From a virus (Duplodnaviria > Caudoviricetes), in the IMG/VR virus record IMGVR_UViG_3300049914_000028, positions 1 to 50,793 of that record: a DNA stretch of 50,793 bases; one strand, written 5' to 3'. Shown here piece after piece: positions 1,957 to 45,616 of this stretch (the stretch's first letter is position 1; each line of letters begins with the position of its first letter). A program made the translations under genes and the position numbers. A model generated the notes under the pieces. That model searched no databases and was not told the DNA's origin. It was given only the letters and a program-made list of their open reading frames with translations.

Positions 1957-2034
1957 AGCGGTTAATTTCAGAACCTGATTTCAGGAGCTTTGAAGCCCGT
2001 GTTGAGAGTCAAGAGACTTTCGCACGGGCTTTTT
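1957..2034 (+). terminator. Intrinsic terminator with upstream conserved hairpin (motif copy A)
   Basis: AGCGGTTAA-TTTCAGA-A-CCTGA-TT-TCAGG-AGC-TTTGAAG followed by the CCCGTG…CACGGG stem and a T run. Confidence 0.85.
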
Positions 2035-2102
2035 GTTTTATGGAAAGGAGGACAAGAACCATCAGTTAGGCAACAACGAAAATAGAACAAAGGAGGTCTT
2101 AG

Positions 2103-2956: not shown

Positions 2957-5197
2957 ATGGAAGATACATACCGAATAACTGCCCTTGAAGATAAGTATTT
3001 CCGCGTTCCCTGGTATGTGACCGTCACAGCCGGGACGACAGGGACGATTACGCCTCCCACGGGCGGGACGATTGTGATGAACCAGTGGGGGGGCAGTGTT
3101 ACGGCAAAGTCAAGCACAATTACAATAAAGGAAAGGCCGACCGGGATTCCGGCAAAGAACGCTGGCGGGGTCGATATAACCGTCACCATGAGCATCACGG
3201 GCGCATGGGCGTTATCAGATACGCCATCCGCCTATCCCATTGCAATCATCTATTATTACGATGTCAAATTGTTTAATTTCGATAGGAATTATTCTCTCGA
3301 TACGGTTACATCCCCAAGTATTCATGCCGTTGGCGACAGCATCGCCGCCTCTATCTCCGACGCCGACACAACTCATTCCCCTGACGGAAATTCAGTCTTT
3401 GATGCCTTGGCGCTTAAGGCTCCTCTTGCAAGTCCTGTCTTTACGACGCAGATCACCACGCCGCAGATTGTTGCCCCTGCTGCATCCCTGATTATTAAAC
3501 CGACCACAGATGGTACGACGGCCATTCAGATTACTGACAAGGATGGGAATGCAATTCTGGATGTTGACACAACGAATAACAGGATATGGATTCATGGTTC
3601 GGGTAGTACTTTCATTGTTACATCTGATGGAAGTGTTAATAATCTGATTGGTAACTTTGAGTTAAATAACGGAGCGGATGCTGCGATAGGTTTTCAATAC
3701 TATGGTTATCCGGCATCCTACGCAACTGATTACTTAAAAAGCACGGTAGCAATTTATGGAAGTAATGTGGCTGCTTATCTTAATATTATAGCGGGCGGCA
3801 CTGCGGCCATTAGATTTTTAATTGGCGGGTGGAATGCTGTTACTTATGAAAAGATGCGAATTACTTCCGGCGGCAAAATCGGCATGTCCGGTTTCACCGC
3901 CCCACTCTCCGACCTCTGCGTTGATAGTCTTCATGTAGGCAGCGAAACCGATGCAGGGGCAAACAATCTCCTGGTGGATGGGACAATCAACAAGGTAACG
4001 GTCACGGCCCCTGCTACTTCAGCCACTCTTACCGTTGCCGATGGCAAAGAATTACATGTCGAAGACACCACTCATGTCAATCAAGACTTGACCACTGACG
4101 CACAGCCGACATTCGCGCAACTTGCAGGACTTGGCGCACCTGACGCCAACGGTGAGGCTATCCGACAGACGGCGAAGATCACAGAGGCATTGCTTGAAAG
4201 TGCGACGGATTTGAAGCACGCCATTGCAACGGTCTCCGCGCCCATCTCCGTAACAGGCCAGGCCCTTTCCCTCGTCAACGACGCAGCGGCAGCCGTGACG
4301 GAAATCGACACCGGCGCGCTGGCGAACTCAGATACGGTTGTTCCGACGAGTAAGGCGGTGCTAAGCAATCTACCTCATAGGAACATCATCATCAATGGCG
4401 GTTTCACTATCAATCAACGTGCCTATGTTTCTGCTGCCGCTCTTGCGGCAGGAGTCTATGGACATGATAGATGGAAGGGTGGCGCAGGTGGCGGAACTTA
4501 TTCCTTTACTCAACTTGCAGGCCCTACAACTATAACCATTGCCGCCAACAAGACACTCATTCAAGTAATCGAAGATGTTAATGTTTATGGTGGAAGTTAT
4601 GTGCTGAGTTGGACCGGAACCTGTCAGGCACGTTACGCCATAAATAGTGCAACGCCCGCAGGTGCCTATGCCGCCAGTCCTATCGTAATCACAGGGCAAA
4701 CAGCGGGAACAACCATGTCTGTCGAGTTTGGGAATGGTGCTGCTTCGGGAACCCTTGGATTAGTACAACTTGAACTCAGCCCGGTTGTAACACCCTTTGA
4801 GTTTAGACTTTACCCGCAAGAATTGGCATTGTGTCAGAGGTATTGCCAGTTGTTAAAGCCGGGGAATGCCGCAATACAGGGATTTAAGTACGCAACAAAA
4901 TACATAGATGCGATATTAACCATCTCGCCCATGAGAGCCAACCCAACTTTAGTCGGTAATGACATTTTAGCATGGAAAGGCGCAGCTAATCCCGCACTTG
5001 GCGAAATAAATGCTTACAGTATTCTTGGGAGTGCATATTTAACCATAACCGGAGCTTTAACTGTCTCAATACAATTTGTTAGTACAACTTCATTTATATT
5101 TAGATGTGTGGCAGCAACATCGTTTACTGGAACGGATGGTGACTTGGTACTAATGAACGCTTATTCTGCCACCGCCGTACTAAGTGCCGAATTATAA
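2957..5197 (+). CDS. Tail fibre / receptor-binding protein
   Basis: 746 aa, A/T/G-rich. Fibre-type motifs 'LALKAPLASPVFT', 'EKMRITSGGKIG', 'RNIIINGGFTINQR…DRW', 'VQLE…TPFEFR…ELALCQRY', ending 'SAEL'. Confidence 0.85.
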   Translation: MEDTYRITALEDKYFRVPWYVTVTAGTTGTITPPTGGTIVMNQWGGSVTAKSSTITIKERPTGIPAKNAGGVDITVTMSITGAWALSDTPSAYPIAIIYYYDVKLFNFDRNYSLDTVTSPSIHAVGDSIAASISDADTTHSPDGNSVFDALALKAPLASPVFTTQITTPQIVAPAASLIIKPTTDGTTAIQITDKDGNAILDVDTTNNRIWIHGSGSTFIVTSDGSVNNLIGNFELNNGADAAIGFQYYGYPASYATDYLKSTVAIYGSNVAAYLNIIAGGTAAIRFLIGGWNAVTYEKMRITSGGKIGMSGFTAPLSDLCVDSLHVGSETDAGANNLLVDGTINKVTVTAPATSATLTVADGKELHVEDTTHVNQDLTTDAQPTFAQLAGLGAPDANGEAIRQTAKITEALLESATDLKHAIATVSAPISVTGQALSLVNDAAAAVTEIDTGALANSDTVVPTSKAVLSNLPHRNIIINGGFTINQRAYVSAAALAAGVYGHDRWKGGAGGGTYSFTQLAGPTTITIAANKTLIQVIEDVNVYGGSYVLSWTGTCQARYAINSATPAGAYAASPIVITGQTAGTTMSVEFGNGAASGTLGLVQLELSPVVTPFEFRLYPQELALCQRYCQLLKPGNAAIQGFKYATKYIDAILTISPMRANPTLVGNDILAWKGAANPALGEINAYSILGSAYLTITGALTVSIQFVSTTSFIFRCVAATSFTGTDGDLVLMNAYSATAVLSAEL

Positions 5198-5685: not shown

Positions 5686-6198
5686 ATGAAAGAGAATTTT
5701 GAACAATCTTTGAACTTTGTTCTTGCCAGTGAGGGCGGATACTCAGACGATTCTGCCGATAAGGGTGGAGAGACTAACTTTGGCATTTCCAAAAAGTCGC
5801 ATCCAGACGAAGACATAGCGAACATGACTCTTGAACGGGCCGCAGAGATATACCAAAAAGACTATTGGATGCCCATCAGAGGCGATGATCTTCCCTCCGG
5901 CGTGGATTATGTGACCTTTGATTCAGCGGTGAATCATGGCCCCGGAAATGCCGGACGATTCTTACAACGGGCATCTAACAGGCAAATTGGGACGCTGACC
6001 ACGGATGGCGTTATTGGTCCTATGACGATTGAGAAAGTGGCAAGGTGTGAACCGCGAGGTCTTATCTGCGACATCCTGCGGGAAAGGGACATCTTCTATC
6101 GCAAGATAGTTGCGCGGGACATTTCACAGTCGAAGTTTATGCGCGGGTGGCTGGCCCGATTAGCAACAGTAGCGGTGAATGTGCGGAATTTTGAGTGA
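5686..6198 (+). CDS. Endolysin, glycoside hydrolase family 108 with peptidoglycan-binding C-terminus
   Basis: 'EGGYSDD…DKGGETNFGIS', 'FDSAVNHG', 'DGVIGPMT', 'F.RGWL.R' motifs. Confidence 0.92.
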   Translation: MKENFEQSLNFVLASEGGYSDDSADKGGETNFGISKKSHPDEDIANMTLERAAEIYQKDYWMPIRGDDLPSGVDYVTFDSAVNHGPGNAGRFLQRASNRQIGTLTTDGVIGPMTIEKVARCEPRGLICDILRERDIFYRKIVARDISQSKFMRGWLARLATVAVNVRNFE

Positions 6199-16181: not shown

Positions 16182-16850
16182 TTATTTTATCAATCCAATC
16201 TCTTTCAAATCCTTCTCACCGACGACCTTGCAACGATGGACGCGAAACTTTCCATCCGTTGCTATCGGGATCGCCGCTATATCTTTAGCGGTAAACTCAA
16301 CGATCAGAATCCGATATCCTTCCCGCCATTCCTTCATGCACCAATCAAGCGTTGAAATGTTTATACCAGCGGCGCATTGTTGCGTGTCGTCCGTGTTGGC
16401 ATTGTCCACGCTGGCAATTTTACCCTTTTCGTATTTCACCCCGCCGTTGTATGGCCCCTCCATGTCGTAATTTACGAGTTTATAGGCGCGGATTTTACCG
16501 GGTTGATCCATGAGGATAAGTAACGGCGTACAGCGATTTTTATTGATGCTGTCCGCCCTGGAGAGGTCCGCCCCGGAGAGGTCCGCCCCGGAGAGGTTCG
16601 CCCTGGAGAGGTTCGCCCTGGAGAGGTTCGCCCTGGAGAGGTTCGCCCCGGAGAGGTTCGCCCCGGAGAGGTTCGCCCCGGAGAGGTTCGCCCCGGAGAG
16701 GTTCGCCCTGGAGAGGTCCGCCCCGGAGAGGTTCGCCCTGGAGAGGTTCGCCCCGGCTTTCCATGCCGCCTCAACGCATAACTTCATTGATTCCGTTTCC
16801 AGCGAGAAAATTACCCGTCCATTGAATCTGTTTTTAATCTCAAATTTCAT
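16182..16850 (-). CDS. Pentapeptide-repeat protein
   Basis: Start MKFEIKNRF; about 14 A(N/D)LS(G/R) repeats; C-terminal 'CAAGI…DGKFRV' domain. Confidence 0.9.
16551..16755. repeat. 15-bp tandem repeat (about 13.5 units) encoding the pentapeptide repeats
   Basis: GAGAGGT(T/C)CGCCC(C/T)G units. Confidence 0.95.
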
Positions 16851-18231: not shown

Positions 18232-18990
18232 ATGAATGATCTATTAGCGATCGAAACTATCCCCGGGAAAATATGCTCGAAGTGCGGAGTATTGAAACCT
18301 GACGATGAATTTTATTTTGACAAAACGGGGATACGTGGAAGGCGTTCCGCATGCAAGGTGTGTCGGGGCGTCGTAGACGCACAATATAGGAAAAACAATC
18401 GCGAAAGAATTGCAGAGAAAAACAAAAAGTGGTTTTCGGAACATTCTGAATACCTTAAAGAATACGGCAAGCAATGGAGGGCAGTTAATAAAGAACGACG
18501 TAAGTATCAAAATAAACGCTGGTGTCAGGAAAACAAAGAGCGTAAGAATGAAATGGATCGGAAATGGCACAAGGAGAACAGAGAAAGAACACTCCTTGCG
18601 GCACGGAAATCATCTCGAAAGCAATACAATACTCCCCAAGGGAAAATAAACTCCAGCATCCGCCGCCTCATGCTCCTCTCTCTGCAAGGTAAATCAAAAA
18701 ATAGAAGCCACTGGGAAGATTTGGTTGGATTTACCGCAGATCAATTAAAGACCCATCTTGAAAAGAGATTTAAACCAGGCATGACATGGGAAAACTATGG
18801 GAGAAATGGATGGCACATTGACCACAAAATTCCCATTGCGGCCTTTAATTATGAAATACCCGGAGATATTGATTTTAAGCGTTGCTGGTCATTAAAAAAC
18901 CTATCCCCCTTAGAATCATCAAAAAATTGCAGCAAGGGGGCAAGAATTGACAAACCGTTTCAGCCATCTTTAGCAATAGGAGTTAATTAA
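18232..18990 (+). CDS. HNH-type homing endonuclease with N-terminal Zn finger
   Basis: CSKC…CKVC, basic helical repeats, 'GMTWENYG..GWHIDHKIP…LKNLSPL…N.SKG'. Confidence 0.85.
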   Translation: MNDLLAIETIPGKICSKCGVLKPDDEFYFDKTGIRGRRSACKVCRGVVDAQYRKNNRERIAEKNKKWFSEHSEYLKEYGKQWRAVNKERRKYQNKRWCQENKERKNEMDRKWHKENRERTLLAARKSSRKQYNTPQGKINSSIRRLMLLSLQGKSKNRSHWEDLVGFTADQLKTHLEKRFKPGMTWENYGRNGWHIDHKIPIAAFNYEIPGDIDFKRCWSLKNLSPLESSKNCSKGARIDKPFQPSLAIGVN

Positions 18991-22293: not shown

Positions 22294-23064
22294 ATGAAAT
22301 GGTTCCGATTTTGGAATGACACGATAAACGATGTAAAGATTCTCCAATTATCTGATTATGAGTATCGGATTTGGACCTATCTGTTATCTTACGCATCGGC
22401 CACGGATTCACTTTCAGGACACTTTCAAATCACTTTCAAACTACTTTCACTTCACTTTCACCAGCGTTTCAACTTGTTTTCACGTGCGATTGAAACGTTT
22501 CAAAGGGTGGGTTTAATCACTGTTGATGAAGATGGATATATCACAATAACAAATTGGAATAAAAGACAGTTTGCTTCTGATAATGCTTATGAACGGGTAA
22601 AGAAACACCGGGAAGTCACACTAAAAAGAAACGTTTCTGTAACGGCACCAGAAGCAGATACAGAAACAGATACAGATAAGAAGAAGAAGAAAACACCTCC
22701 TCGTAAAAAATTAACAGACGAAGAATGGATTGAAAGCCTGAAGTCCAATCCTGCTTATATCGGTTTAGATATACAGGTTATCAAGGGGAAGTGTGAGGCG
22801 TGGTGTTTTAATAAAGGGAAAATGTTTACCAGAGCGCGATTACTGAACTGGTTAAACCGAGAAGAACGGCCAATGGGAGGCGACGGCAATGGATCAGGAG
22901 CTTATCGACGCCCAGGCGCGTCTTTTGAAAAAGCGGGAAGAGGAAAAGATGACGGTGCAAGAGGAGATCGGCTACCAAAAGAATACATCCCCGAAACCCT
23001 ACCAGACATTACCGAGGAGGAAAGACAGCGGAACCTCGAACGCCTCAAAGAGCTTACGGGATGA
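22294..23064 (+). CDS. Replication initiator (replisome-organiser/DnaD-like)
   Basis: 'KWFRFWND…D.KI', 'I.NWNKRQ…ERVKKHR', 'EADTETDTDK', C-terminal 'LLNWLNRE'. Confidence 0.8.
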   Translation: MKWFRFWNDTINDVKILQLSDYEYRIWTYLLSYASATDSLSGHFQITFKLLSLHFHQRFNLFSRAIETFQRVGLITVDEDGYITITNWNKRQFASDNAYERVKKHREVTLKRNVSVTAPEADTETDTDKKKKKTPPRKKLTDEEWIESLKSNPAYIGLDIQVIKGKCEAWCFNKGKMFTRARLLNWLNREERPMGGDGNGSGAYRRPGASFEKAGRGKDDGARGDRLPKEYIPETLPDITEEERQRNLERLKELTG

Positions 23065-23175
23065 TATGGTGCGCATTACCTACATAAGAGGGATTTCACG
23101 AGACCTGACCCATAAAGTAAGGCGTGATATTGCAGAGGATCTTATCAAACACGGATGGGCGCGAGAGGGATATTG

Positions 23176-23526
23176 ATGGATTGCTCCAAATGTGAAAAAT
23201 GGAATAAAGGCCGAGGTCAGAAGGAATGTACCACGAGCTGTAAGCAATACCGTGATTTTCAGCGAAATTCGGTCAAACGTGAATCGATCAGGACGGAGCA
23301 TATCCCCCAAGCGATTCTGGAAAATATAGCAGATCCGCGCACGCGCACTTTGTTAAATCTTATCCAACAATTACCGCCGATTTATTCCGTGCCGCTGATG
23401 ATGAGATCCTTGCTCAACATGTCATACGAGGAGATAGCTTTGTATCATCACGTTTCCCGGTCGCCGATGCAGAGGAGGATCAGCCACGCGATTGTGATAC
23501 TCAAAAAGTCGCTGCTTGATGGGTGA
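23176..23526 (+). CDS. Cys-cluster plus sigma70 region-4-like HTH protein (transcription regulator)
   Basis: CSKC…C…C, then 'IQQLP…MSYEEIA…VSRSPMQRRISHAI..LKK'. Confidence 0.7.
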   Translation: MDCSKCEKWNKGRGQKECTTSCKQYRDFQRNSVKRESIRTEHIPQAILENIADPRTRTLLNLIQQLPPIYSVPLMMRSLLNMSYEEIALYHHVSRSPMQRRISHAIVILKKSLLDG

Positions 23527-28391: not shown

Positions 28392-28544
28392 ATGCCGGTA
28401 AGGATTAGGAAGGTTGGAGGAAAATATCAGGTTTCGACGCCGAATGGGACCAAATCGAAGGGGACCACATTGAAGAAGGCCAAGGCGCAGGAGAGGCTTT
28501 TGAATGCGGTAGATCATGGTTGGCGACCCCGGAAGAAGAAATAA
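28392..28544 (+). CDS. Small basic protein upstream of TerL
   Basis: MPVRIRKVGGKYQVSTPNG…KAKAQERLLNAV; RBS GGAGG; TAATG-coupled to TerL. Confidence 0.65.
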   Translation: MPVRIRKVGGKYQVSTPNGTKSKGTTLKKAKAQERLLNAVDHGWRPRKKK

Positions 28545-30100
28545 TGCCTGACCCGGTAGAGCAGTACGCGAAGTATTTGAATTTGATTTCGATCAAGATG
28601 CACCCGGTGGCACTTGAGTATATCAAGTCTGAGGCGCAGACGAGGGCGATAATTAAGGGGAATCAAGGTGGGGGGACGCTCTTTTCGGCCTACGATGCGA
28701 CGTTAAGGCTCCTTGGCATACATCCGATCCCGAGAAGGAATGTTTTGAATAAACCCCTGAGGTTTGTTTCCAAGTGCCTTCCGAAGAGTGACACGGATGA
28801 AGAGAACCAGCAGTACGTTGAGTTGAAGCGGCTTTTTCCTGCTGAGTTTATCAGACCACACGGAGACGTGACGGCGCGATGTTCGATTATGAAGGTACGC
28901 GATCCACGAGGCGGAGCTGACCGGAAGGTCGAATTCATGTCGTCCTCGCAGGAACTGGACGCATTTATGTCGGTTCAAAGATCGGCCTACTACCAGGACG
29001 AGGAGATTGAGAAGGTCAAATGGGATGAATCTCATGTCCGACTATTAAAGGAGGGTGGGGATTCGACGATTACCTTAACGCCGGTTCGGGGGATGGATTG
29101 GACGTTTGATTCGATCTGGAAGAAAGCGCGAAAGATACATCGGTCGGGGACGATCTGTCGGAAATTCGGGTTCCCGGCACTGGAAACGACCGATCAGAAG
29201 GCGGATATAGATGTTTTCTGCTGGGCCACGGATGACAATCCGGTGATGGACAAGGCGACGATTGACCGAATCTTTGCCGACATAGACGACCCGGACGAGC
29301 TGGCGATGCGGCGTTATGGGGTATTCCGGCAGGTTTCGGGGCGGATTTACAAGTCATTTGACGAGAAGATTCACAAACAACCGTTTGACAAGGTGTTTGA
29401 TGCCGCTCTTTTCAGGACGTACTGGAATTTCAGGGTGATAGATTTTCATACCAGCAAACCGTGGGATGTTTCGTTTGTCGTCGTGACGCCTCGGAACGAG
29501 TGGATAGTGTGGAATGAACTACACCAGACACATGACAACCGGACGACGCTTGAGTTGAGAGATGAACTAAAAGAGGAGTCTGTATGCGATGAAGATGAGG
29601 AGATGAACAGGGCCACATTGATTGATCCTCTTAGTAAACAAAAACAGGGCAATACCGGATTTTCCGTGTTTGACGACTTGGGGATGGGGGAAAACGGGTT
29701 GCGTCGGATGACTCCTGCGGATACAAAAAATTCTCCCAATGGTGGCCGGATGAATATCAAGATGAGGTTGAAAAATTCCCTGATTTGCGGGGTGCCGGGG
29801 AACAATCTCAACAAGACCGACCTTTCGGAAACGCGGTACGGCCCTTATCTGCCGACACTCTGGTTCTTAGATAATTGCCGGGGGCATATCGAGCATTTCA
29901 AGAGTTGGCGGTATGTGGATTGGAAGCAGGAACACGTGAAGGCGGTGCGGACGGTGAAACGGGAATCGGAGAAATACAGCGACTACTGCCGGAACCTTGA
30001 ATTTCTCGGGGCGCTCAACCCTGCTTTTTACGAGCGCAAACATGATTTTTACGAACCATCGAAACTGTTTCAAGGACGGAAAGCGGCGGGATGGAGATAG
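28544..30100 (+). CDS. terL: Terminase large subunit
   Basis: Walker A-like 'KGNQGGGT', Walker B 'YYQDEE', coupling motif 'TLTP', 'DNP', nuclease 'VIDFH…DP…D..R'. Confidence 0.88.
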   Translation: MPDPVEQYAKYLNLISIKMHPVALEYIKSEAQTRAIIKGNQGGGTLFSAYDATLRLLGIHPIPRRNVLNKPLRFVSKCLPKSDTDEENQQYVELKRLFPAEFIRPHGDVTARCSIMKVRDPRGGADRKVEFMSSSQELDAFMSVQRSAYYQDEEIEKVKWDESHVRLLKEGGDSTITLTPVRGMDWTFDSIWKKARKIHRSGTICRKFGFPALETTDQKADIDVFCWATDDNPVMDKATIDRIFADIDDPDELAMRRYGVFRQVSGRIYKSFDEKIHKQPFDKVFDAALFRTYWNFRVIDFHTSKPWDVSFVVVTPRNEWIVWNELHQTHDNRTTLELRDELKEESVCDEDEEMNRATLIDPLSKQKQGNTGFSVFDDLGMGENGLRRMTPADTKNSPNGGRMNIKMRLKNSLICGVPGNNLNKTDLSETRYGPYLPTLWFLDNCRGHIEHFKSWRYVDWKQEHVKAVRTVKRESEKYSDYCRNLEFLGALNPAFYERKHDFYEPSKLFQGRKAAGWR

Positions 30101-30103
30101 GTA

Positions 30104-32098
30104 ATGGCTAAATCCAAAAAAAATAAAGAAGTAAAATCCGATTGGAATGTTTCGGAAGAGATCCAACAGGCCCTTCTTTCCCATGTGAGTGAAGAACTGA
30201 AGGTTGCAGAACAGAACAGCGAAAAGGCCATTCAGGATTTCAATGCCTATTACGACATGCTGCATGGCGTCCGGGAGGCGAAAACTAACGACTGGGAATC
30301 GGATATCTTCCTTCCTGAATTTGAATCCCGGCTTCTGACACAGGTTGGAAACTTCGTGGCGCAGTATTTTGGCAGTACGGATTACGTTGACACGGCAATG
30401 GAGTCCGAGGATCCCAAAGACGTGGCCGAAGCCAAGGCGTCAAAGAAACTCCTCAACAAACTCCTAAACGACAAGGAGGCTTATTATTATTACAAGATTG
30501 TTCGCAACATCATGTATGTATTCACCTGCGGCCAAGGGATCATAAAGGGTGGGTATAATCAGCGAATCGCCAGCGAATTGTCGCACTATAATCAGGAATC
30601 GGAATATATCACGGACCCGTTAACGGGCGATTACCTTGCTGAAGATGGACAACCCTATACTGATCCCACAATCCAGAAACCCGCCTTCCAAACGGTACAG
30701 AAACCCATGATGATGGATAAGGTTCAGATCGACAAACCCGTTTTTGATGTTTACCCGATCACGAACGTCCATACGTCCCCGGAGTATTGTTACAGTCTGA
30801 ACGACAAGGAATACGTCATTTTTGAGACGGAAAAGACCCTCGACGCCTTAAAGATAGAAGCGGATGAGATGGGATACTTTAATCTCAATTTTCTGGAGGA
30901 GGAAGAACCGGAAGGGCAACGTGGGGAGAAGACCTACGACAAAGATGCGGAATTGGTCCAGCAACCGCGCCCACCCCTGAAAACCTTTGTGGTCATGGAA
31001 CGATGGGGGAAATATCCTGTTGTCGAAAAGGACGGGAAGTTCATTCCCGGATTTGACCCGGACGGCAGTTTTTCTAAAGATGCGGCAAACGAGGAGTGCA
31101 TTGTCCACTATGTCAAACAACGGGAAAAAGACGAACCGGAACGGATCATTGGATTCCGAAAATCAAAGCATTCAAAACGGCCGATGGTCCGATTCCTCTG
31201 CTATGTGGACATGATTAAAGATTGCGGGTTTGGGGATGGGGAGGTCAACCGGGAACTTCAGAAGGCGATTAACGACAATTATAATTTGATGAATTACCGG
31301 ACCAAACTGGCGATCACCCCGGCATTCAAGGGTAAGAGATTCGCCGTTGACGAGAATGTCAAGATCACCCCCGAAAAGGTTATCCTACTTGAAGATCCCG
31401 AGAACGATCTAAAGGAAATCATCATTCAGGACAACATCCAGGGTGGCATCGTACACCAGAACCTTCTTTCGTCCCGGATGGATTATTGCATGGCGACCGC
31501 GCCACAGACGATGGGGGCGTCTCCTGAACGTGCGGAAACCGCAACGATGGCCTCCATCGTCAACCAGAGGGCCAATGTCCGAATCGGTATGAAGTCCATG
31601 AACCTTGAGTTCATCGGATTTACGGAATTTTACGACATGCTTCTGACCCTCTGCAATGACTTCATGCTCCCGGAGACCCTTGAAGAATTGATCGGCAAGG
31701 AAGATGCTGCGGCCTACAACCCAAAACGGAAAGATAAATTCCGGCCTGTTTCGCAAGCCCTTGAAACAGAAGAGAGTAAACAATTCAAGATAAAGTCATG
31801 GCAGGGCATATTGCAGATGGTTGGCGGGATGCAAAACCCAAAGACTCCGATGGTAGTCAATTACATAATCGGTCAAGTGCTTGAACTGATGGGCGGTGGC
31901 TTCAAGACGTTCAAGAAATATATGTTTGAAGAAGATCCGACTACGATGGTTTTGTATCAGTTAGCGACAGGGGGGAAGGGGCAAGGATCGGCTCCGGCGG
32001 GACCACCTCCGGGAATGCCCCCGCAAAACCAGCAAGGGAATCCACAGAGACCGCCGGAACAACAGACGAGGGCGCAAGCCCCGCAACAGGCCGCATAG
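30104..32098 (+). CDS. Portal protein (podovirus-type)
   Basis: 664 aa after TerL; 'GFGDGE…LQ.AIND.YN', 'ETAT'; Pro/Gln-rich tail. Confidence 0.85.
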   Translation: MAKSKKNKEVKSDWNVSEEIQQALLSHVSEELKVAEQNSEKAIQDFNAYYDMLHGVREAKTNDWESDIFLPEFESRLLTQVGNFVAQYFGSTDYVDTAMESEDPKDVAEAKASKKLLNKLLNDKEAYYYYKIVRNIMYVFTCGQGIIKGGYNQRIASELSHYNQESEYITDPLTGDYLAEDGQPYTDPTIQKPAFQTVQKPMMMDKVQIDKPVFDVYPITNVHTSPEYCYSLNDKEYVIFETEKTLDALKIEADEMGYFNLNFLEEEEPEGQRGEKTYDKDAELVQQPRPPLKTFVVMERWGKYPVVEKDGKFIPGFDPDGSFSKDAANEECIVHYVKQREKDEPERIIGFRKSKHSKRPMVRFLCYVDMIKDCGFGDGEVNRELQKAINDNYNLMNYRTKLAITPAFKGKRFAVDENVKITPEKVILLEDPENDLKEIIIQDNIQGGIVHQNLLSSRMDYCMATAPQTMGASPERAETATMASIVNQRANVRIGMKSMNLEFIGFTEFYDMLLTLCNDFMLPETLEELIGKEDAAAYNPKRKDKFRPVSQALETEESKQFKIKSWQGILQMVGGMQNPKTPMVVNYIIGQVLELMGGGFKTFKKYMFEEDPTTMVLYQLATGGKGQGSAPAGPPPGMPPQNQQGNPQRPPEQQTRAQAPQQAA

Positions 32099-32107
32099 GA
32101 GTAATGA

Positions 32108-32434
32108 ATGAAGGAATGGACGAATCAAGACCTGATCGAGTACGTCAGCAAGTTCAAGGATGTTCAGAGAGAGTACGTCCTGAAACAGATCCTTGAAAAT
32201 GATTTGCTGGCGAAGTTTTTGGGGACGACTGAGGGACGACTGATTTTGGGTAATGTCGTCGATGCGATCACTTCAGATACAATGTTGATGGTCCGATTGT
32301 GCGTTGAGGGGGATAAAAAGGGGGAAATATCCCAGGCTGCTCTCAGGATAAGCACCGCCTACAATTTCATGTATTCTATTGCGAAGATGGCCGGAGACGG
32401 TCAGGAACACGTGGAGAAGATGAAAAAGAAATGA
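32108..32434 (+). CDS. Small helical protein following the portal
   Basis: 'FLGTTEGRLIL' motif typical of post-portal proteins. Confidence 0.65.
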   Translation: MKEWTNQDLIEYVSKFKDVQREYVLKQILENDLLAKFLGTTEGRLILGNVVDAITSDTMLMVRLCVEGDKKGEISQAALRISTAYNFMYSIAKMAGDGQEHVEKMKKK

Positions 32435-32610
32435 CGGCATACAAGCAGACCTTTGAAGAGGCGATAAAACAATGGGGATTCAAGAAGGTGCTTGCAGAAC
32501 TCCTCAATGTTGCCAAGTTGACGGATGAAAAGACGGTTGGACAGTTCACCGCAAACCTTAACAGCGGAGGGGTGACAGACGCATTTATAAATAAGAAGAT
32601 TCAGCAGTAG
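32431..32610 (+). CDS. 59-aa DUF2292 (YezD/OscA)-like small protein, not in the ORF track
   Basis: MTAYKQTFEEAIKQWGFKKVLAELLNVAKLTDEKTVGQFTANLNSGGVTDAFINKKIQQ. ATGA-coupled; helix followed by a 'G-x-F-x-A-x-L-x-x-GG-V…K-I' beta hairpin. Family call is by pattern only. Confidence 0.6.
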   Translation: MTAYKQTFEEAIKQWGFKKVLAELLNVAKLTDEKTVGQFTANLNSGGVTDAFINKKIQQ

Positions 32611-32611
32611 C

Positions 32612-32647
32612 GACGGTTGTTTCAAAACCAATAATGGAACTTTGAAA
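32612..32647 (+). ncRNA. Conserved hairpin motif, copy B (no terminator)
   Basis: GACGGTTG-TTTCAAA-A-CCA-ATAA-TGG-AAC-TTTGAAA. Confidence 0.65.
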
Positions 32648-32662
32648 TTCGGGAGGTGAAAA

Positions 32663-32830
32663 ATGGAGTGGTTAAGAAAAAGGATTGTGGCTTGGTTGAG
32701 GGTTCCGACAGAAGTAGATATGTATTACATTCAGAATTGCATGTTCTACCGCGAATCGCCGGAAGATAAACCATATCTTAAAAAAGTTGGAACTGTGGTG
32801 AAGGAACATATAAGTAAAAAGAAAAAATAA
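32663..32830 (+). CDS. 55-aa hypothetical protein between motif copies B and C, not in the ORF track
   Basis: RBS GGAGGT; MEWLRKRIVAWLRVP…. Confidence 0.55.
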   Translation: MEWLRKRIVAWLRVPTEVDMYYIQNCMFYRESPEDKPYLKKVGTVVKEHISKKKK

Positions 32831-32840
32831 CATAGAAAAA

Positions 32841-32913
32841 AGCGGTTAGTCTAAAACCCGCAAGGGAACTTTGGAACCCGTGTCGAAAGAGCAATCTTTC
32901 TTCACGGGTTTTT
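32841..32913 (+). terminator. Intrinsic terminator with upstream conserved hairpin (motif copy C)
   Basis: AGCGGTTAG-TCTAAA-A-CCC-GCAA-GGG-AAC-TTTGGA followed by ACCCGTG…CACGGGT-TTTT. Confidence 0.85.
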
Positions 32914-32944
32914 GTTTTTGGACAACTTAACAGGAGGATTTGAC

Positions 32945-33745
32945 ATGGCAGAGATCGACACTCCTACACCCCCCGCGCCTGCGGGACAGGCACCGGAGCC
33001 GACACCAGAACCAGAAGTACAAACGCAATCAGGATGGATCGAGGAGCCGACCCCGGAACCGGAGCCAGTTCCCGAACCCGTGCCGGAACCAACCCCGCAA
33101 CCGCAACTAACCCCGGACCAGATCATAGAGCAGTCGTCCGAACGAGCCTTTCAGAAAATAGCATCGTGGCAGGGACGGAGAGACAAAGACCTCTTCGACA
33201 ACCTCGGGAATCTGATCGACAGTCGGATGAGGACGCAGATCCCTCCTCCGCAACCTCCCTCGACTGACCCCGCCACGATGCTTGAAAATCCAGACGGATG
33301 GGCAAGAACGGTAGTGCCCCGGATTCTCGACGAAGAAATTTCCCGACGGTCAAAAGCCGATCAGAATTTCAATACCGAACTGATCCGCGAGGCGGCGACC
33401 ATAATGGATGGCGACCCTTTGTTCAAGGACAAAAACCTTGGGGATGCGGTGGTTGCGGAGATTCAGCAGAATTTCAACAATGTCAACCGTCAACTCCATC
33501 CGTCGGTTGCCGCGCAACTTCTCGTGCAGGGAGGTCTGGCGAATGTAGTTCGCAGAGTCGCGGCGACGAAAACAAACGCCTTTGCCGATCACAAACCCGT
33601 TGCGGGACCGATGGGGACCGTGACCCCGCCGCCTCCAAAACCAGCCAAAGCCAAGCCGGTGAAACTTTCCGAATCCGCAGCGGCATTAGCTAAACGGTGG
33701 AATTACAGCGCGGAAGATATAGCAAAGGTATTTGGGGAACAATAA
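32945..33745 (+). CDS. Capsid scaffolding protein
   Basis: Pro/Glu-rich N-terminus, helical core, 'KLSE.AAALAKRW..S.E' C-terminus; RBS GGAGG; between portal and capsid. Confidence 0.75.
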   Translation: MAEIDTPTPPAPAGQAPEPTPEPEVQTQSGWIEEPTPEPEPVPEPVPEPTPQPQLTPDQIIEQSSERAFQKIASWQGRRDKDLFDNLGNLIDSRMRTQIPPPQPPSTDPATMLENPDGWARTVVPRILDEEISRRSKADQNFNTELIREAATIMDGDPLFKDKNLGDAVVAEIQQNFNNVNRQLHPSVAAQLLVQGGLANVVRRVAATKTNAFADHKPVAGPMGTVTPPPPKPAKAKPVKLSESAAALAKRWNYSAEDIAKVFGEQ

Positions 33746-35023: not shown

Positions 35024-35947
35024 ATGAGTAACCCATTAACCGACAAACAATTCGTGCGGCTCCTGGACGATAGACTTACCAAAGTCTTTGTCAACCAGTA
35101 CAAGGGTCTCCCATCCATCAAGGAGAAGTTTTATTCAATCAAGAAATCCAAGAAGGCGTCGGAGGAATATTTCAGCGTCGGGTCCGTGCCTGATCCTGAA
35201 GCGTTTAACGGGATCATCCAGTATCAGGGCGTTGCTCCCGGATACCATACCAAGATCACCCCGGCGGAATACGCGGGCGGCATCACGATCCAGAGAAGGC
35301 TTCTGGATACGGATCGTTATGACGTGATCGAAGGTCTGGCAAAGGGACTCGGAACCGCTGCAAGACGGAAACAGAATAAGATCGCCCATGAAGTTTTCAC
35401 GAACTTCGATTCTACGGCGTTCGACTTCGTTGTTTCCGAGGAAGGCGTTGCCCTGTGTTCCAATTCCCATCTGACCAAGGCCCCGAATGTCTCTACCGCT
35501 TCCGGTTTTGACAACCTTTCCACTCTTGGTTTTGATGCGGTTAACCTCGAAGCACTTCGGATTCAGGGTCTTGGATTCCGGGATGACATCGGAGAACGGA
35601 TCGAAACGAACTTCGATACCATCGTCCACGGAACCAACCTCGAAGCCGATGTGTGGACGGTACTGAACTCTCAGGGCGCCACCGGCGACAATCTCAACGA
35701 CGCCAATTTCCAGAAAGGCCGTTGGAAGGCGATCTGCCTTCCCCTACTCGATGACTACGATACGAACGATTGGTTCATCGTGGATTCTTCGGCCATGAAA
35801 GATGCTCTGATCTGGATCGACAGCATTCCGTTGGAGTTTGGTTCCACGACCGACTTCGACACTATGGTAAGAAAATACAGTTCTTACATGGTTTGTGGTT
35901 GGGGATTTGTTGATTGGCGCTGGATTGTAGGGTCGAGCGTGAGTTAG
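35024..35947 (+). CDS. Major capsid protein (HK97 fold, Mu gpT-like family)
   Basis: 'YAGGITIQRRLLDTD.Y…LG.AA', 'EGVALCSNSH', 'WFIVD', 'GFVDWRWIVGS'; followed by a terminator. Confidence 0.85.
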   Translation: MSNPLTDKQFVRLLDDRLTKVFVNQYKGLPSIKEKFYSIKKSKKASEEYFSVGSVPDPEAFNGIIQYQGVAPGYHTKITPAEYAGGITIQRRLLDTDRYDVIEGLAKGLGTAARRKQNKIAHEVFTNFDSTAFDFVVSEEGVALCSNSHLTKAPNVSTASGFDNLSTLGFDAVNLEALRIQGLGFRDDIGERIETNFDTIVHGTNLEADVWTVLNSQGATGDNLNDANFQKGRWKAICLPLLDDYDTNDWFIVDSSAMKDALIWIDSIPLEFGSTTDFDTMVRKYSSYMVCGWGFVDWRWIVGSSVS

Positions 35948-35974: not shown

Positions 35975-36047
35975 AGCGGTTAGTTTGTAACCCTTAGGGG
36001 ATCTACGAAGCCCGTGTTGAGTCGAAAGACTTGGCACGGGCTTTTTT
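35975..36047 (+). terminator. Intrinsic terminator with upstream conserved hairpin (motif copy D)
   Basis: AGCGGTTAG-TTTGTA-A-CCC-TTAG-GGG-ATC-TACGAA followed by GCCCGTG…CACGGGC-TTTTTT. Confidence 0.85.
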
Positions 36048-36179
36048 GTTTGTCCCTCCCTGAGTGACGCGGGTCGCTCTTAACCTGTCCTCCCCTCTTC
36101 GTTATCGGGATGAAGGGGGGAGGATCTTAACCCTCTCAATGCTTGTCCGATTCGGGTGTGAGAGAAAAGGAGAATTAAA

Positions 36180-37178
36180 ATGAGTGTAACAAGAGAAATG
36201 AGGGCGCAGGTTGCCAACATTGTTGGCCCCGGCTATGGCGAGATTTATTGCCTTGTTGCAGATCGGGATGATGCCTATGGCAAACTGCTTCGGAAGAGGG
36301 GTGTTACGTTAGGTTCGATTTTCACCACTTTGGCAGAGGCGGAAGATAAGATGGTGACGGATCAGAACGATACCCTTCTTGTATTTCCGGGGAATCATGC
36401 GGTTACGGCTTCGATTCTGTGGGACAAGGATGCCACAAACATCATCGGTGTCGGTAGTCCCAATCAGGGGTATCAGCCATCGACCCTAACCAATGGTGGT
36501 GTTAGGATTAAGTGTGACACTGCCACGGTTGCGGAAATCCTTGACATAACTGGCAACTACGTTTCGATTTACGGTATCGGCACACAGAACACGGCAAACG
36601 ACTCGACGAATGTTTGCGATCTTCGGATCAGAGGCAAGAACACCTACCTGAAACTTTGCGCCCTTCGTGGTGGAACGGGTGCTGCACAGGTCGCGGCTGA
36701 GGGGTCAGGTCTGCCAATCTACGTTGACCAGGATCAAAATGCCGGTGCCGGTAATGCGTTGTGGGTTGATACGTGTCAGTTGGGAAGTTCCGGTAATACT
36801 GCCCGGACGGTTGGAACCAGTTGCTTGATGTCACATTCGGCTTCGGGTGCCTATGCGGGTGGTTTTGGTATGCACTTCACCGATTGCGTATTTTCAATGA
36901 TAAGTTCTACCGCCGGTGTTTTCTGTGTAAACTTCCCACATCCGTTCTCGATTGATCGGGATGCGTATTTCAAAAGATGTCTGTTTTACTGCTATGGCAC
37001 TGCCGCAGCCGTAGATTACGTGTTCAATACCGGATCGAACAACACGGATGTTGTTCTTGATAGTTGCGTCTATCACAATTTCGATTATTGGGCTGCTGCG
37101 GGATCGCATGTTTATGTTGCTTGTGGCCCGGCAAACATCGGTCCTGGTGGTAAATCGGTTGTGTGTGCCAACTCATAG
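36180..37178 (+). CDS. Beta-helix virion protein (head fibre/spike-like)
   Basis: 'FTTLAEA…DTLLVFPGNH…IIGVG' pectin-lyase-like start; repeated 'F..C.F' strands. Confidence 0.65.
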   Translation: MSVTREMRAQVANIVGPGYGEIYCLVADRDDAYGKLLRKRGVTLGSIFTTLAEAEDKMVTDQNDTLLVFPGNHAVTASILWDKDATNIIGVGSPNQGYQPSTLTNGGVRIKCDTATVAEILDITGNYVSIYGIGTQNTANDSTNVCDLRIRGKNTYLKLCALRGGTGAAQVAAEGSGLPIYVDQDQNAGAGNALWVDTCQLGSSGNTARTVGTSCLMSHSASGAYAGGFGMHFTDCVFSMISSTAGVFCVNFPHPFSIDRDAYFKRCLFYCYGTAAAVDYVFNTGSNNTDVVLDSCVYHNFDYWAAAGSHVYVACGPANIGPGGKSVVCANS

Positions 37179-37994: not shown

Positions 37995-38849
37995 ATGAGC
38001 CTTGTATCAACGGTTTTGACGGCTGTGGGGTATCGTCTCGGCGGCGGGATCACGATTTCCGCCACTTCGGACCCGTCGCTTGCGGCGTGTCTGCAATGGC
38101 TGAATGAAACCGCCTTGTGGATCACGGGGATTTGCGCGGAACAGAACTCGGATTTGGGCCGTACAATAGGGACCATAACCACGGTCCATGCGGACATTAC
38201 CGCCGCAGACAAATCCGCCGCGTGCGCCATAACCGCCGCGAGTCATGGTCTGATTTCATCGGGAACTTGTGAGGTTCTTGTCAAGGATGTTGTCGGCATG
38301 ACGGAACTTAATGACCACGAATATACCTTCACCTTTGTCAGTACAAGTGCCGGGACGCTTAACGTGGCCTCTACCGCGTACACGACCTACACTTCCGGCG
38401 GTCATGTGATGAAGCGGAAATTCAGCGACCTTGCCACGACCATCTACACGCCATGCCAACAGGGATGGATTGTCGATACCAATTCCCGGACGCCTATACA
38501 ACTCGTTTCGGAGAAATCCCTGCTGGATTACGATCCCGTGGAGGCGACCGAACCATCCGAATTTTACGTTGATGGGTCAAATAATGTTTGTTTCCCCTCA
38601 TACCCGGATGATGCCTACACGATCAAGATTCCTTATTACACGATTCCAACGGCGTTGACGGCTGTTGGCGACACCATGCCGTTCCTGGGCCTCATGGACA
38701 ACGTGTTCATCGAGGACGTGACGATTCGGTCGCAAAACAGGGATGAGTACGACACGGGTGTGGAAATGAAATGGAGATCATTTTTGCATGAAAGAGCAAC
38801 CAGAGTAATTGCCATGAGGAAAAAGATGTCTATCGGAGTGTCCCTATAA
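37995..38849 (+). CDS. Head-tail adaptor-like protein with E1-FCCH-like inserted domain
   Basis: 'LQWLNE', 'P.EFYV…FP.YPDDAYTIKIPYY'; insertion 'ITAADKS…ITAASHGL…VVGMTELND'. Confidence 0.7.
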   Translation: MSLVSTVLTAVGYRLGGGITISATSDPSLAACLQWLNETALWITGICAEQNSDLGRTIGTITTVHADITAADKSAACAITAASHGLISSGTCEVLVKDVVGMTELNDHEYTFTFVSTSAGTLNVASTAYTTYTSGGHVMKRKFSDLATTIYTPCQQGWIVDTNSRTPIQLVSEKSLLDYDPVEATEPSEFYVDGSNNVCFPSYPDDAYTIKIPYYTIPTALTAVGDTMPFLGLMDNVFIEDVTIRSQNRDEYDTGVEMKWRSFLHERATRVIAMRKKMSIGVSL

Positions 38850-39643
38850 TGAAAGTTTCGGGAATCTATAAGATAGAAAACGCCATTGATGGGAAAGTTT
38901 ATGTCGGTAGCGCCGTTAATCTTGCGAAAAGGAGACGCGATCATTTTGCGGCGTTGGCGATTAATAAACACATAAATTATCACCTACAACGAGCATGGAA
39001 TAAATACGGCGCGGAAAACTTCTTATTTGTTGAACTTGAACTGTGCACCCGCGATCAACTCATCACCCGCGAACAGTATTACCTTGATACGCTTAATGCG
39101 TGCGCGTTTGGGTACAATATTGCTCCCACAGCGGGAAGTAGTCTGGGACGGGTACACTCCGAAGATACGAAGAAGAAAATATCCGGTAAGGCAATAGGAA
39201 GAATTACCGGCCCATGTTCTGATGAAAGAAGGAAAAATATATCCTTGGGCCATATCGGGAAAAAACAAACAGAAGAGCATAACCGTAAGGCTATTGAGGG
39301 AAGATTACGCAATGGTGGCTATCACCATACCGCCGAATCAAGAAAAAAAATATCAGAAGCACAAAAGGGAAAAGTAAAACCAGCAGGAATGGGTGAGAAG
39401 GTGTCGATGGCCCTTACTGGAAGACCAAAATCACCAGAGCACAGACAACATTTATCTGAATCAAAAATAGGAAAACCCGGAACGCCGCACACAGCGGAAT
39501 GGAAACGCAAAATGTCCGAGTCGCACAAGGGAGTCGTTTTATCCTTTGAGTCTATCCAGAAAATGCGCGAGACGAAACGAAGGAACTTCTTGTTGAAAAA
39601 ACAAATACAGGATCAACAAACTGGAATTTCGGTGGGGTTGTAA
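38849..39643 (+). CDS. GIY-YIG homing endonuclease with NUMOD3-type repeats
   Basis: 'SGIYKIEN…YVGSA…LQRAWNKYG..NF…REQYYLD…GYN', repeated 'H(S/T)EE…KISE'. Confidence 0.92.
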   Translation: MKVSGIYKIENAIDGKVYVGSAVNLAKRRRDHFAALAINKHINYHLQRAWNKYGAENFLFVELELCTRDQLITREQYYLDTLNACAFGYNIAPTAGSSLGRVHSEDTKKKISGKAIGRITGPCSDERRKNISLGHIGKKQTEEHNRKAIEGRLRNGGYHHTAESRKKISEAQKGKVKPAGMGEKVSMALTGRPKSPEHRQHLSESKIGKPGTPHTAEWKRKMSESHKGVVLSFESIQKMRETKRRNFLLKKQIQDQQTGISVGL

Positions 39644-44965: not shown

Positions 44966-45616
44966 ATGAAAACATACGAAAATACCGGAATCTACAAAAT
45001 TGAAAATTTGGTCAATGGAAAGATTTATATTGGCAGTTCTGTAGATATTAAAAACAGGTGGAGACAACACCTTGGATATTTTTCAAGGGGCAAACATGGG
45101 AATGTGTATCTGCAAAGGGCATGGGATAAATACGGTTCTGAAAATTTCAAGTTTGACATAATCGAGAAATGCGATACCGGGATACTTGCGGAAAGAGAAC
45201 AATACTATATAGATTTATTTGATGCCTGTAAGTTCGGGTATAATCTTTCGCCGACAGCAGGAAGTAATTTAGGGATGATTCACTCGGAAGAATTCAGGAA
45301 GAAGATTTCTTTGGCGCAAATGGGTAAAAAACGTGGACCTCATTCCGAAGAACACAAAAGGAAAATATCCCTATCGGAAACCGGAAAAAAGAAAAGACCG
45401 CATACCGAAGAAGAAAAAAAGAAGTTATCATTATTAATGAAAGGCAGACCATGTCCCGCAAACAGGAAACCATCTCCTTTCAAAGGAAAACCCGGAAGAA
45501 AACATACAGAAGAAGAAAAGTTAAAAATTAGTCAAAATCAAGTAACGCAAAGGAAATTACGGTTGATTACTAAAACCGAACCAATGATGGCTGACCTCAT
45601 CGCTAAGATGATGTAA
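44966..45616 (+). CDS. GIY-YIG homing endonuclease with NUMOD3-type repeats
   Basis: 'TGIYKIENL.NGKIYIGSS…LQRAWDKYG.ENF…REQYYID…GYN', 'HSEE..KKIS' repeats. Confidence 0.92.
   Translation: MKTYENTGIYKIENLVNGKIYIGSSVDIKNRWRQHLGYFSRGKHGNVYLQRAWDKYGSENFKFDIIEKCDTGILAEREQYYIDLFDACKFGYNLSPTAGSNLGMIHSEEFRKKISLAQMGKKRGPHSEEHKRKISLSETGKKKRPHTEEEKKKLSLLMKGRPCPANRKPSPFKGKPGRKHTEEEKLKISQNQVTQRKLRLITKTEPMMADLIAKMM

Follow-up and report, generated by a model that had tools for sequence, protein, structure and literature searches.

A hairpin repeated at late terminators of an uncultured phage and the small-protein gene linked to it: a candidate terminator-specific antitermination switch

In the genome of an uncultured phage of the Caudoviricetes, recorded in IMG/VR as IMGVR_UViG_3300049914_000028, one intrinsic terminator stands before a scaffold-like gene, one after the major capsid gene and one before the tail-fibre and endolysin genes, which raises the question of what decides whether RNA polymerase stops at these sites or reads on. 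The window, that is, the whole stretch of DNA analysed, comprises 50,793 base pairs (bp) and represents a complete virus (CheckV completeness 100%); the genome is circularly permuted, one open reading frame (ORF) of ~1380 amino acids (aa) crossing the 3' end and resuming at base 1. A preliminary description of this DNA had drawn attention to the gene of a 59-aa protein and to a hairpin found next to it and at the late terminators, and had proposed that the protein licenses read-through by binding the hairpin. As detailed here, the recurrence of the hairpin and its linkage to the gene suggest an undescribed protein-controlled on/off switch for late genes. The features on which the argument is built are the following.

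1958..2000, plus strand: sensor of copy A, 7 nucleotides (nt) past the stop of the ~1380-aa wrap-around ORF; covariance model E-value (E) 1.1e-11
1993..2039, plus strand: terminator of copy A, -30 kcal/mol, T5
32431..32610, plus strand: ORF, the 59-aa small-protein gene, with 21 homologues, all unnamed
32612..32652, plus strand: copy B, a sensor only, without terminator; model E 1e-11
32663..32830, plus strand: 55-aa ORF between copies B and C
32842..32881, plus strand: sensor of copy C; model E 3.8e-15
32875..32919, plus strand: terminator of copy C, -22 kcal/mol, T5-G-T5, with the 3' strand of the sensor's basal helix P0 within its 5' arm
32945..33745, plus strand: scaffold-like gene, the downstream neighbour of the module, conserved in this clade
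35024-35947, plus strand: major capsid gene (Pfam Phage_capsid_4, E 1e-11)
35976..36015, plus strand: sensor of copy D, 28 nt past the major capsid stop; model E 2.6e-15
36007..36047, plus strand: terminator of copy D, 17 pairs, -37 kcal/mol, T6

A single RNA fold of ~44 nt is found four times in this genome, at 1958, 32614, 32842 and 35976, the motif CGGTTA/G starting at 1959, 32614, 32843 and 35977, respectively. When each copy was folded in truncated form, up to the start of the terminator, the same P0-P1-P2 stack was obtained in all four cases, made of P0 (3-4 bp), an internal loop UUAG, P1 (6-7 bp), a bulged A, P2 (3-4 bp) with a tetraloop, and a 3-nt A-N-C bulge. P0 is GCGG/CCGU, as in copy C, where it is followed by UUAG, P1 UCUAAA/UUUGGA, A, P2 CCC-GCAA-GGG and AAC; in copy B, P0 is CGG/UCG and is combined with P1 UUUCAAA/UUUGAAA, A, P2 CCA/UGG and AAC. 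A covariance model built from the four copies and run over both strands of the 50.8-kb genome with filters off retrieved these four only (E 2.6e-15 to 1.1e-11), the next best match having an E of 1. All four copies of the architecture initially described, with their P1 and P2 arms, are present (model E <= 1e-11), with a correction for copy B, whose CGG lies 4 nt, instead of 1 nt, past the TAG stop (32608-32610) of the small-protein gene.

The conservation of this fold was assessed on 16 copies, originating from this genome and from 12 other uncultured phage contigs in which the element was found. In this set, 90.7% of the cells pair compared to 78.6 +/- 1.5% in shuffles, changes on both sides affect 8 of the 13 pairs compared to a shuffled mean of 3.9, and none of 500 shuffles reaches any of these measures, while slid registers pair at no more than 53%. 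A 17-sequence alignment, with one probable false positive included, gives a similar picture, and P0 and P2 were recovered by an independent combination of MAFFT and RNAalifold. The claim that the stems differ in sequence while their pairing is kept is therefore supported by compensatory changes, and the presence of many G-U pairs, which would be A-C on the other strand, argues for a structure selected in the sense-strand RNA. A promoter function of the conserved bases was considered and rejected, as the stem sequences vary while pairing is kept; an antisense idea was likewise abandoned, the plus-strand complements of CGGUUAG not going beyond chance. With regard to known RNA families, the whole window yields no Rfam 15 match at the gathering score, and the elements searched in E-value mode reach at best an E of 0.07-0.12, far below gathering and with biologically unrelated families; the comparison with Rfam envisaged at the outset thus leaves the element without a match to any Rfam 15 family. 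Literature searches returned no description of it. The motif may nevertheless already be among the >10,000 candidate phage RNAs catalogued in PMC10690425.

Three CCCGTG...CACGGG hairpins followed by T-runs are located at 1996-2028, 32877-32908 and 36011-36040, compared to 0.09 expected, and copies A, C and D lead into them, in line with what had been noticed first. Their placement at module boundaries also held: the terminator of copy C lies 25 nt before the scaffold-like gene, that of copy D after the capsid gene, and that of copy A, itself located after the wrap-around ORF, lies 5' of the tail-fibre gene and of the GH108 endolysin gene. In 14 of 14 terminator-linked copies, the terminator 5' arm starts with (A/G)(A/G)CCCG, which is the P0 3' strand, and the remaining stem varies. 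Since the P0 3' strand thereby provides the first bases of the terminator 5' arm, the sensor and terminator folds are mutually exclusive, which confirms the antiterminator/terminator layout proposed earlier and corresponds to the general definition of an attenuator, namely two mutually exclusive conserved folds of which one is an intrinsic terminator. When both are folded together, the terminators (-22 to -37 kcal/mol) outcompete the sensors (-8 to -15 kcal/mol).

As regards the exact pairing at the base of the sensor, the preliminary description had matched GGTT with the start of the terminator arm. This GGUU/A(A/G)CC register can indeed pair in 16 of 16 aligned copies and overlaps the arm, but its changes are one-sided only, and the thermodynamically preferred register, found in 4 of 4 truncated folds, is NCGG/CCGN, one step off. 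Both registers overlap the terminator 5' arm. The outermost P0 pair (GC 6, GU 4, UG 2, UA 2) is the only covarying basal pair, and it covaries with the terminator arm.

The same sensor is found with two expression platforms: usually a terminator and, in copy B of this genome as well as in one copy of contig L042 (L042-B), an adjacent Shine-Dalgarno sequence. More precisely, the P0 3' strand of copy B adjoins the Shine-Dalgarno GGGAGGUG (32651-32658) of the 55-aa ORF, an orphan for which a search of 5.8 billion proteins returned only itself. This ORF is not found in loci L004 and L026, which are devoid of any inserted ORF and in which the small gene leads directly to element and terminator; it is probably inserted cargo. 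In L042, a B-type hairpin at 177-219 (P2 CCA/UGG, then GAGGUGA-N-AUG) precedes an 86-aa ORF unrelated to the 55-aa ORF, and a C-type copy with its terminator follows the latter.

To follow the element in related phages, 13 capsid-related loci were taken, and the four-copy model was run on these and on L022 (14 loci in total). Two of the 14 match: in L004, the element separates a homologue of the 59-aa ORF, which ends right before it, from the scaffold gene; in L005, an extra gene stands between the capsid gene and the element, and the terminator of this copy and that of copy D differ in one compensatory pair. None of the 13 capsid-related loci has the element immediately 3' of the capsid gene, and in 11 of these 13 relatives the surroundings of the capsid genes, as well as the complete relatives G001 and G002, were negative with the model; read by eye, the model-negative relatives present homologues of 41 and 43 aa followed by diverged hairpins and terminators, a reading without statistical support. 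Extra genes with sigma-70-like promoters of their own (TTGAC.., by eye) come after the capsid gene in L005 (1994-2786), L011 and L009/L010, and the one of L005 ends with an element and a terminator.

The loci retrieved via the small protein contributed copies from L026 and L031, as well as a weak variant from L028. In five further loci (L022, L023, L029, L030 and L032), a multi-hairpin RNA of ~120 nt with a terminator, which gives no model match, replaces the 44-nt element; these L022-type sequences are too similar for a covariation test. An exact-pattern scan of IMG/VR with the sensor consensus, in which the terminator sequence was not used, identified 11 contigs, 9 of them new, and an intrinsic terminator lies right after the match in 11 of 11. 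Another scan, in which the element was combined with the terminator sequence of this phage, was discarded, its 5 matches being all unrelated by eye. According to a second covariance model built from the 16 copies, the element is present once in four other phages, twice in L042 and four times here. Copies A, D and that of L005 are the same whole module of ~100 nt, including the upper stem of the terminator, and L004, with a capsid protein of 86% identity, lacks the block of copy D (~105 nt) at the corresponding site; the additional copies therefore derive from duplication of the module.

The link between the RNA and the small-protein gene is equally consistent. The gene lies upstream of the element in 13 of 13 genomes in which this could be judged (the window, L004, L026, L031, L034-L038, L040 and L042-L044), L005 being too short. 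Within the contigs of the pattern scan, a homologue is encoded at most ~330 nt upstream in 10 of 11, the eleventh being too short to judge, and 7 of the 9 new matches show an ORF of ~59 aa, ending in ...IDCNQGGITALTRTEKIR, that stops 2-10 nt before the element. The proteins form two clades, 26% identical to each other, whose homology is indicated by hhalign (95%, E 2.7e-8). In the clade of the window, and in the more distant L069 and L070-72, gene and RNA lie between portal and scaffold, homologous scaffold N-termini being found 3' of the element in L004, L026, L036 and L042. In the second clade, an IstB-like replication ATPase is encoded upstream, and a Terminase_2 small terminase and the large terminase downstream; these neighbours place the pair at the boundary between early and late genes, the usual position of a late regulator. 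Co-occurrence in homologous phages is thus observed, and, being linked in two different genomic contexts, gene and RNA travel as a unit. In L070-72, a sigma-70-like promoter (TTGACT-16-GATAAT, by eye) separates the gene from an element-like leader, in which GCGG...CCGC flank a hairpin and which is followed by a terminator (model E only 1.9); by analogy, this order of promoter, leader and terminator is that of a classic attenuator.

Concerning the 59-aa protein, its gene can be considered as real and conserved, as had been supposed: besides the 21 relatives, a hidden Markov model (HMM) of 25 members collected, at E <= 1e-3, 116 representative clusters (50% identity) among 1.84 billion proteins, all of them 44-113 aa long. 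AlphaFold 2 provided with the HMM-collected alignment predicts an alpha-alpha-beta-hairpin with a predicted local distance difference test (pLDDT) score of 86.7, compared to 65 with 21 sequences only. The protein has no Pfam or PHROG match, a protein atlas gave no usable match, and a search of the PDB by sequence returned nothing for the phage family or for DUF2292. At 32431-32434, the stop and start codons of the preceding 108-aa gene and of the 59-aa gene, respectively, overlap (ATGA), as they do in L004 and L006, which suggests translational coupling of the two genes.

The preliminary description had also compared the protein to DUF2292 (YezD/OscA). To our knowledge, DUF2292 is without known function, and literature searches found none described. 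The 59-aa ORF does not match Pfam DUF2292 (PF10055, gathering 22 bits) at E <= 1, nor do the six frames of the window or 7 small-protein relatives at E <= 10; only 2 of 117 family members match PF10055 at E <= 0.01 (best 0.0019), with DUF2292 as top family, while 9 true DUF2292 proteins from bacterial genomes, taken for comparison, score 39-60 bits. Profile comparisons by hhalign give a probability of 26% for the second phage clade (P 7.2e-4, 42 columns), 0.9% for the clade of the window, 11% for both merged and 30.5% for the 117-sequence profile (P 5.4e-4), all in one colinear register of 36-42 columns. The phage family shares with DUF2292 a length of ~55-75 aa, a helix followed by a beta-hairpin and the register G-x-hydrophobic-x-I ... 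I-x-x-I ... E-K-x-R, but it stays below every Pfam threshold and has its own invariant GQ and N-x-GG-x-T motifs, which are peculiar to it. Hence, membership of DUF2292 is not supported by Pfam, whereas the weak colinear profile signal (P 5-7e-4) is suggestive of a remote kinship. Run on 11 bacterial DUF2292 loci, the second covariance model gave 0 matches. In the bacterial DUF2292 loci L047, L049, L050, L052, L053 and L055, a block ACCAG-N4-CUGG(A/G)A lies 20-80 nt past the gene (6 of 6 aligned), often with a GCGG-AUAA-CCGC hairpin 5' of it, and forms the 5' arm of a terminator-like hairpin in 3 of the 6; covariation was not seen among these related genomes and Rfam gave no match, which makes this block a lead only.

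How could such an element work? For intrinsic termination, the hairpin has to close as far as the U-tract, and holding the basal 4-6 nt of the 5' arm should therefore be enough to block it. A weak first-formed stack, conserved unpaired nucleotides and a stronger terminator are, by analogy, the anatomy of a factor-stabilised antiterminator of the ribonucleic antiterminator (RAT)/LicT type. In such a mechanism, the three-helix stack P0/UUAG/P1/A/P2/A-N-C would form as the polymerase leaves the upstream gene; unaided, it would be displaced by the more stable terminator (at the energies given above) and transcription would stop. If a trans-acting factor gripped P0 together with the conserved loops, the foot of the terminator stem would be unable to close beside the U-tract, and the polymerase would then read into the scaffold/capsid, post-capsid and tail-fibre/lysis genes. 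We infer that the switch is off by default, that it depends on a factor, and that this factor is most likely the ~59-aa protein encoded immediately upstream, the best candidate because no other gene stays with the RNA in both contexts. As each terminator has its own sensor, antitermination would be local, terminator by terminator, while in copy B and L042-B the sensor beside the Shine-Dalgarno would control translation. The reading preferred here, tentatively, as a proposition that could almost go either way, is that a factor stabilises the element as a terminator-specific antiterminator, the small protein being the leading candidate for this effector. A wider proposal, according to which the ~59-aa family would consist of new RNA-binding, terminator-specific antiterminators that time the morphogenesis genes, each reading its own downstream hairpin, and would through kinship provide a first mechanism for DUF2292, has to be considered as doubtful when taken jointly.

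Several observations weigh against this preference. As regards the RNA, P0 has just 4 bp, P1 was not recovered by RNAalifold from the MAFFT alignment and reaches only 84% pairing, its U-U mismatches falling mainly in the second clade; moreover, the covariation alignment was fitted to the model, its sequences are related, and the distant element-like leaders of L069, L070 and G001 are not significant with the model (E about 2). As regards the protein, it is not notably basic and carries no family annotation, and a Foldseek search of the PDB gave a best E of 2.2, with no known RNA-binding fold. The converse linkage fails, the L022-type lineage (6 loci) having the small gene with a different multi-hairpin RNA, and, gene and RNA being adjacent, shared inheritance can mimic a functional linkage. 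Besides, the sigma-70 region-4 protein described below could drive late transcription alone. Some of these points are compatible with a genuine switch that answers to another effector, be it a phage protein (the scaffold protein by autoregulation, the 108-aa protein or a partner of the sigma region-4 protein), a host factor or a riboswitch-like small molecule: the element always lies 5' of morphogenesis genes (scaffold or small terminase), its conserved unpaired nucleotides and two platforms would suit any ligand, the small protein has no recognisable RNA-binding fold, and the L022-type lineage possesses it without the 44-nt RNA. This explanation is unlikely, given that the small-protein gene is the only neighbour of the element in both contexts, scaffold, 108-aa and portal genes being absent beside it in the terminase-context clade, that a stack of 44 nt, with a loop that varies, offers little room for a metabolite pocket, and that no Rfam riboswitch matches.

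One may also do without regulation altogether and suppose that the hairpin tunes a fixed partial termination, or acts on the 3' ends of upstream mRNAs, by protecting or processing them, thereby setting the ratios between late blocks. Set expression ratios have precedents in T-phi and the RNase III sites of phage T7, and a terminator after the major capsid gene, as found here, is a common stoichiometry device; in addition, terminator C is only 25 nt from the scaffold start, which leaves no space for a promoter and therefore makes some read-through obligatory, and a P0 of only 4 bp would suit a passive hairpin. Such a hairpin would nevertheless not need unpaired UUAG, A and A-N-C conserved across protein clades that are 26% identical, nor explain why terminator-less copies retain the fold beside a Shine-Dalgarno or why P0 covaries with the terminator arm, and its probability is accordingly judged to be low. 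Much less probable still is an attenuation coupled to translation, in which a ribosome at the upstream stop would cover the 5' strand of P0/P1 and thereby select the fold, no dedicated factor being needed: although most copies have the stop codon between -8 and +12 nt of CGG, and L026 and L028 have it within CGGUUAG/CGGGUAA, copy D is 28 nt away from its stop, the element-like leader of L069 and L070-72 lies ~55 nt downstream with a promoter in between, and the conserved loop sequences would be left unexplained. A very slight probability is finally given to a role at the DNA level, the ~100-nt block being the end of a portable cassette or a recombination hot spot at moron insertions and not a sensor. 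The block is an indel relative to L004, copies A, D and that of L005 have the whole module in common including the terminator upper stem, unrelated ORFs lie between two copies in the window and in L042, the block terminates an extra gene in L005, and the genome is rich in homing endonucleases; conversely, G-U pairs and compensatory changes argue for selection on the sense-strand RNA, and a single copy at a fixed position in four other genomes is unlike mobile elements. A block that is mobile could, moreover, also be regulatory.

When the preferred antitermination reading is set beside known systems, the closest layout is that of the RAT elements recognised by BglG, LicT and SacY (CAT-PRD), which are also imperfect hairpins of ~30-45 nt with asymmetric internal loops that overlap the terminator 5' arm, as the present hairpin does in 14 of 14 terminator-linked copies, and in which stabilisation by a protein would likewise yield local read-through. 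The similarity pointed out initially holds for this layout and does not extend to the protein, given that a six-frame search of the genome for CAT_RBD (PF03123) yielded nothing at E <= 1; furthermore, neither the sequence of the RNA nor its loop layout is related, the candidate protein is an alpha-alpha-beta-hairpin of 59 aa, the genes concerned are phage late genes and the sensor recurs at several terminators. Like lambda N/nut and Q/qut and HK022 put, the module would be a phage-encoded control of late or delayed genes via terminator read-through and, as for lambda Q, a small gene stands in a terminase context just before a terminator and the late operon. N, Q and put antitermination is processive, RNA polymerase being modified once, near the promoter. 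Here, a competing hairpin is present at each of three terminators, which points to a local RNA-structure mechanism; a single promoter-proximal site was not found, homologues of the N and Q proteins not having been searched for, and Rfam searches revealed no similarity to nut or put RNA.

The bipartite conAn system of Gram-positive conjugative plasmids relies on a large RNA that acts processively over many terminators from one site, with a protein as processivity factor (PMC8191782); the two systems have in common a protein gene with an RNA directly downstream and antitermination on a mobile element, and differ in that a 44-nt hairpin here competes directly with the adjacent terminator. TRAP, PyrR, HutP and ANTAR attenuation also relies on an RNA-binding protein, here putative, that chooses between alternative RNA folds, and TRAP similarly uses one sensor with transcriptional and translational platforms. 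However, no protein or RNA similarity links the module to these systems and its host is a phage; a search of the genome for ANTAR (PF03861) gave nothing at E <= 1, and the loops are variable tetraloops, unlike the dual hexaloop hairpins of ANTAR.

If the preferred reading is true, this phage would order the expression of its portal, scaffold/capsid and tail/lysis genes in a different way, through a local hairpin-versus-terminator switch at several late terminators and a dedicated tiny protein, compared to the processive N, Q and put systems. It would provide a candidate RNA family that Rfam 15 does not contain, give a testable function to a widespread unannotated family of small phage proteins and offer a lead to the mechanism of DUF2292. 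Short and portable (~100 nt plus a 180-nt gene), the module might in addition serve as a compact orthogonal switch.

The genomic surroundings have to be read without a cultured relative to draw on, since neither megablast of the 8.7-kb head region against 50,697 GenBank phages nor tblastn of three small-protein variants against GenBank phages gave any match; in addition, the majority of the structural proteins have no PHROG match. The other genes of importance for the above are the following.

2957-5197: tail-fibre gene
5686-6198: GH108 endolysin gene
23155-23526: gene of a 123-aa protein with sigma-70 region 4 only (Pfam E 3e-10)
From 27609, plus strand: small-terminase-like gene
28520-30100, plus strand: 526-aa ORF, taken as large terminase
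30104-32098, plus strand: 664-aa ORF, taken as portal
Between the portal ORF and the 59-aa ORF, plus strand: 108-aa gene

The sigma-70 region 4 protein (23155-23526) is likely a late-transcription activator and a possible partner of, or alternative to, the proposed switch. Between copy D and a 332-aa gene at 36180, a second conserved structured RNA (36088-36166) consists of a long hairpin with the conserved loop UUCGUUAUCGGGAUGA and of a second hairpin; it is also present in L004, L005, L006 and L016, 9 of its 25 pairs covary, and it matches no Rfam family. Within the late operon, a GIY-YIG homing endonuclease gene (38849-39643) and an ORF at 44966-45616 have a 46-nt repeat in common, and an HNH/EndoVII-like nuclease is encoded in the early region (18232-18990). 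A 15-nt unit is repeated in tandem at least 14 times at 16506-16801, within a coding region of the minus-strand side, and would encode a pentapeptide repeat. Finally, four or more 11-nt direct repeats (..CACTTTCA..) at 22407-22482, in or beside the gene of a DnaD-like replication initiator (22294-23064), resemble the iterons of a replication origin.

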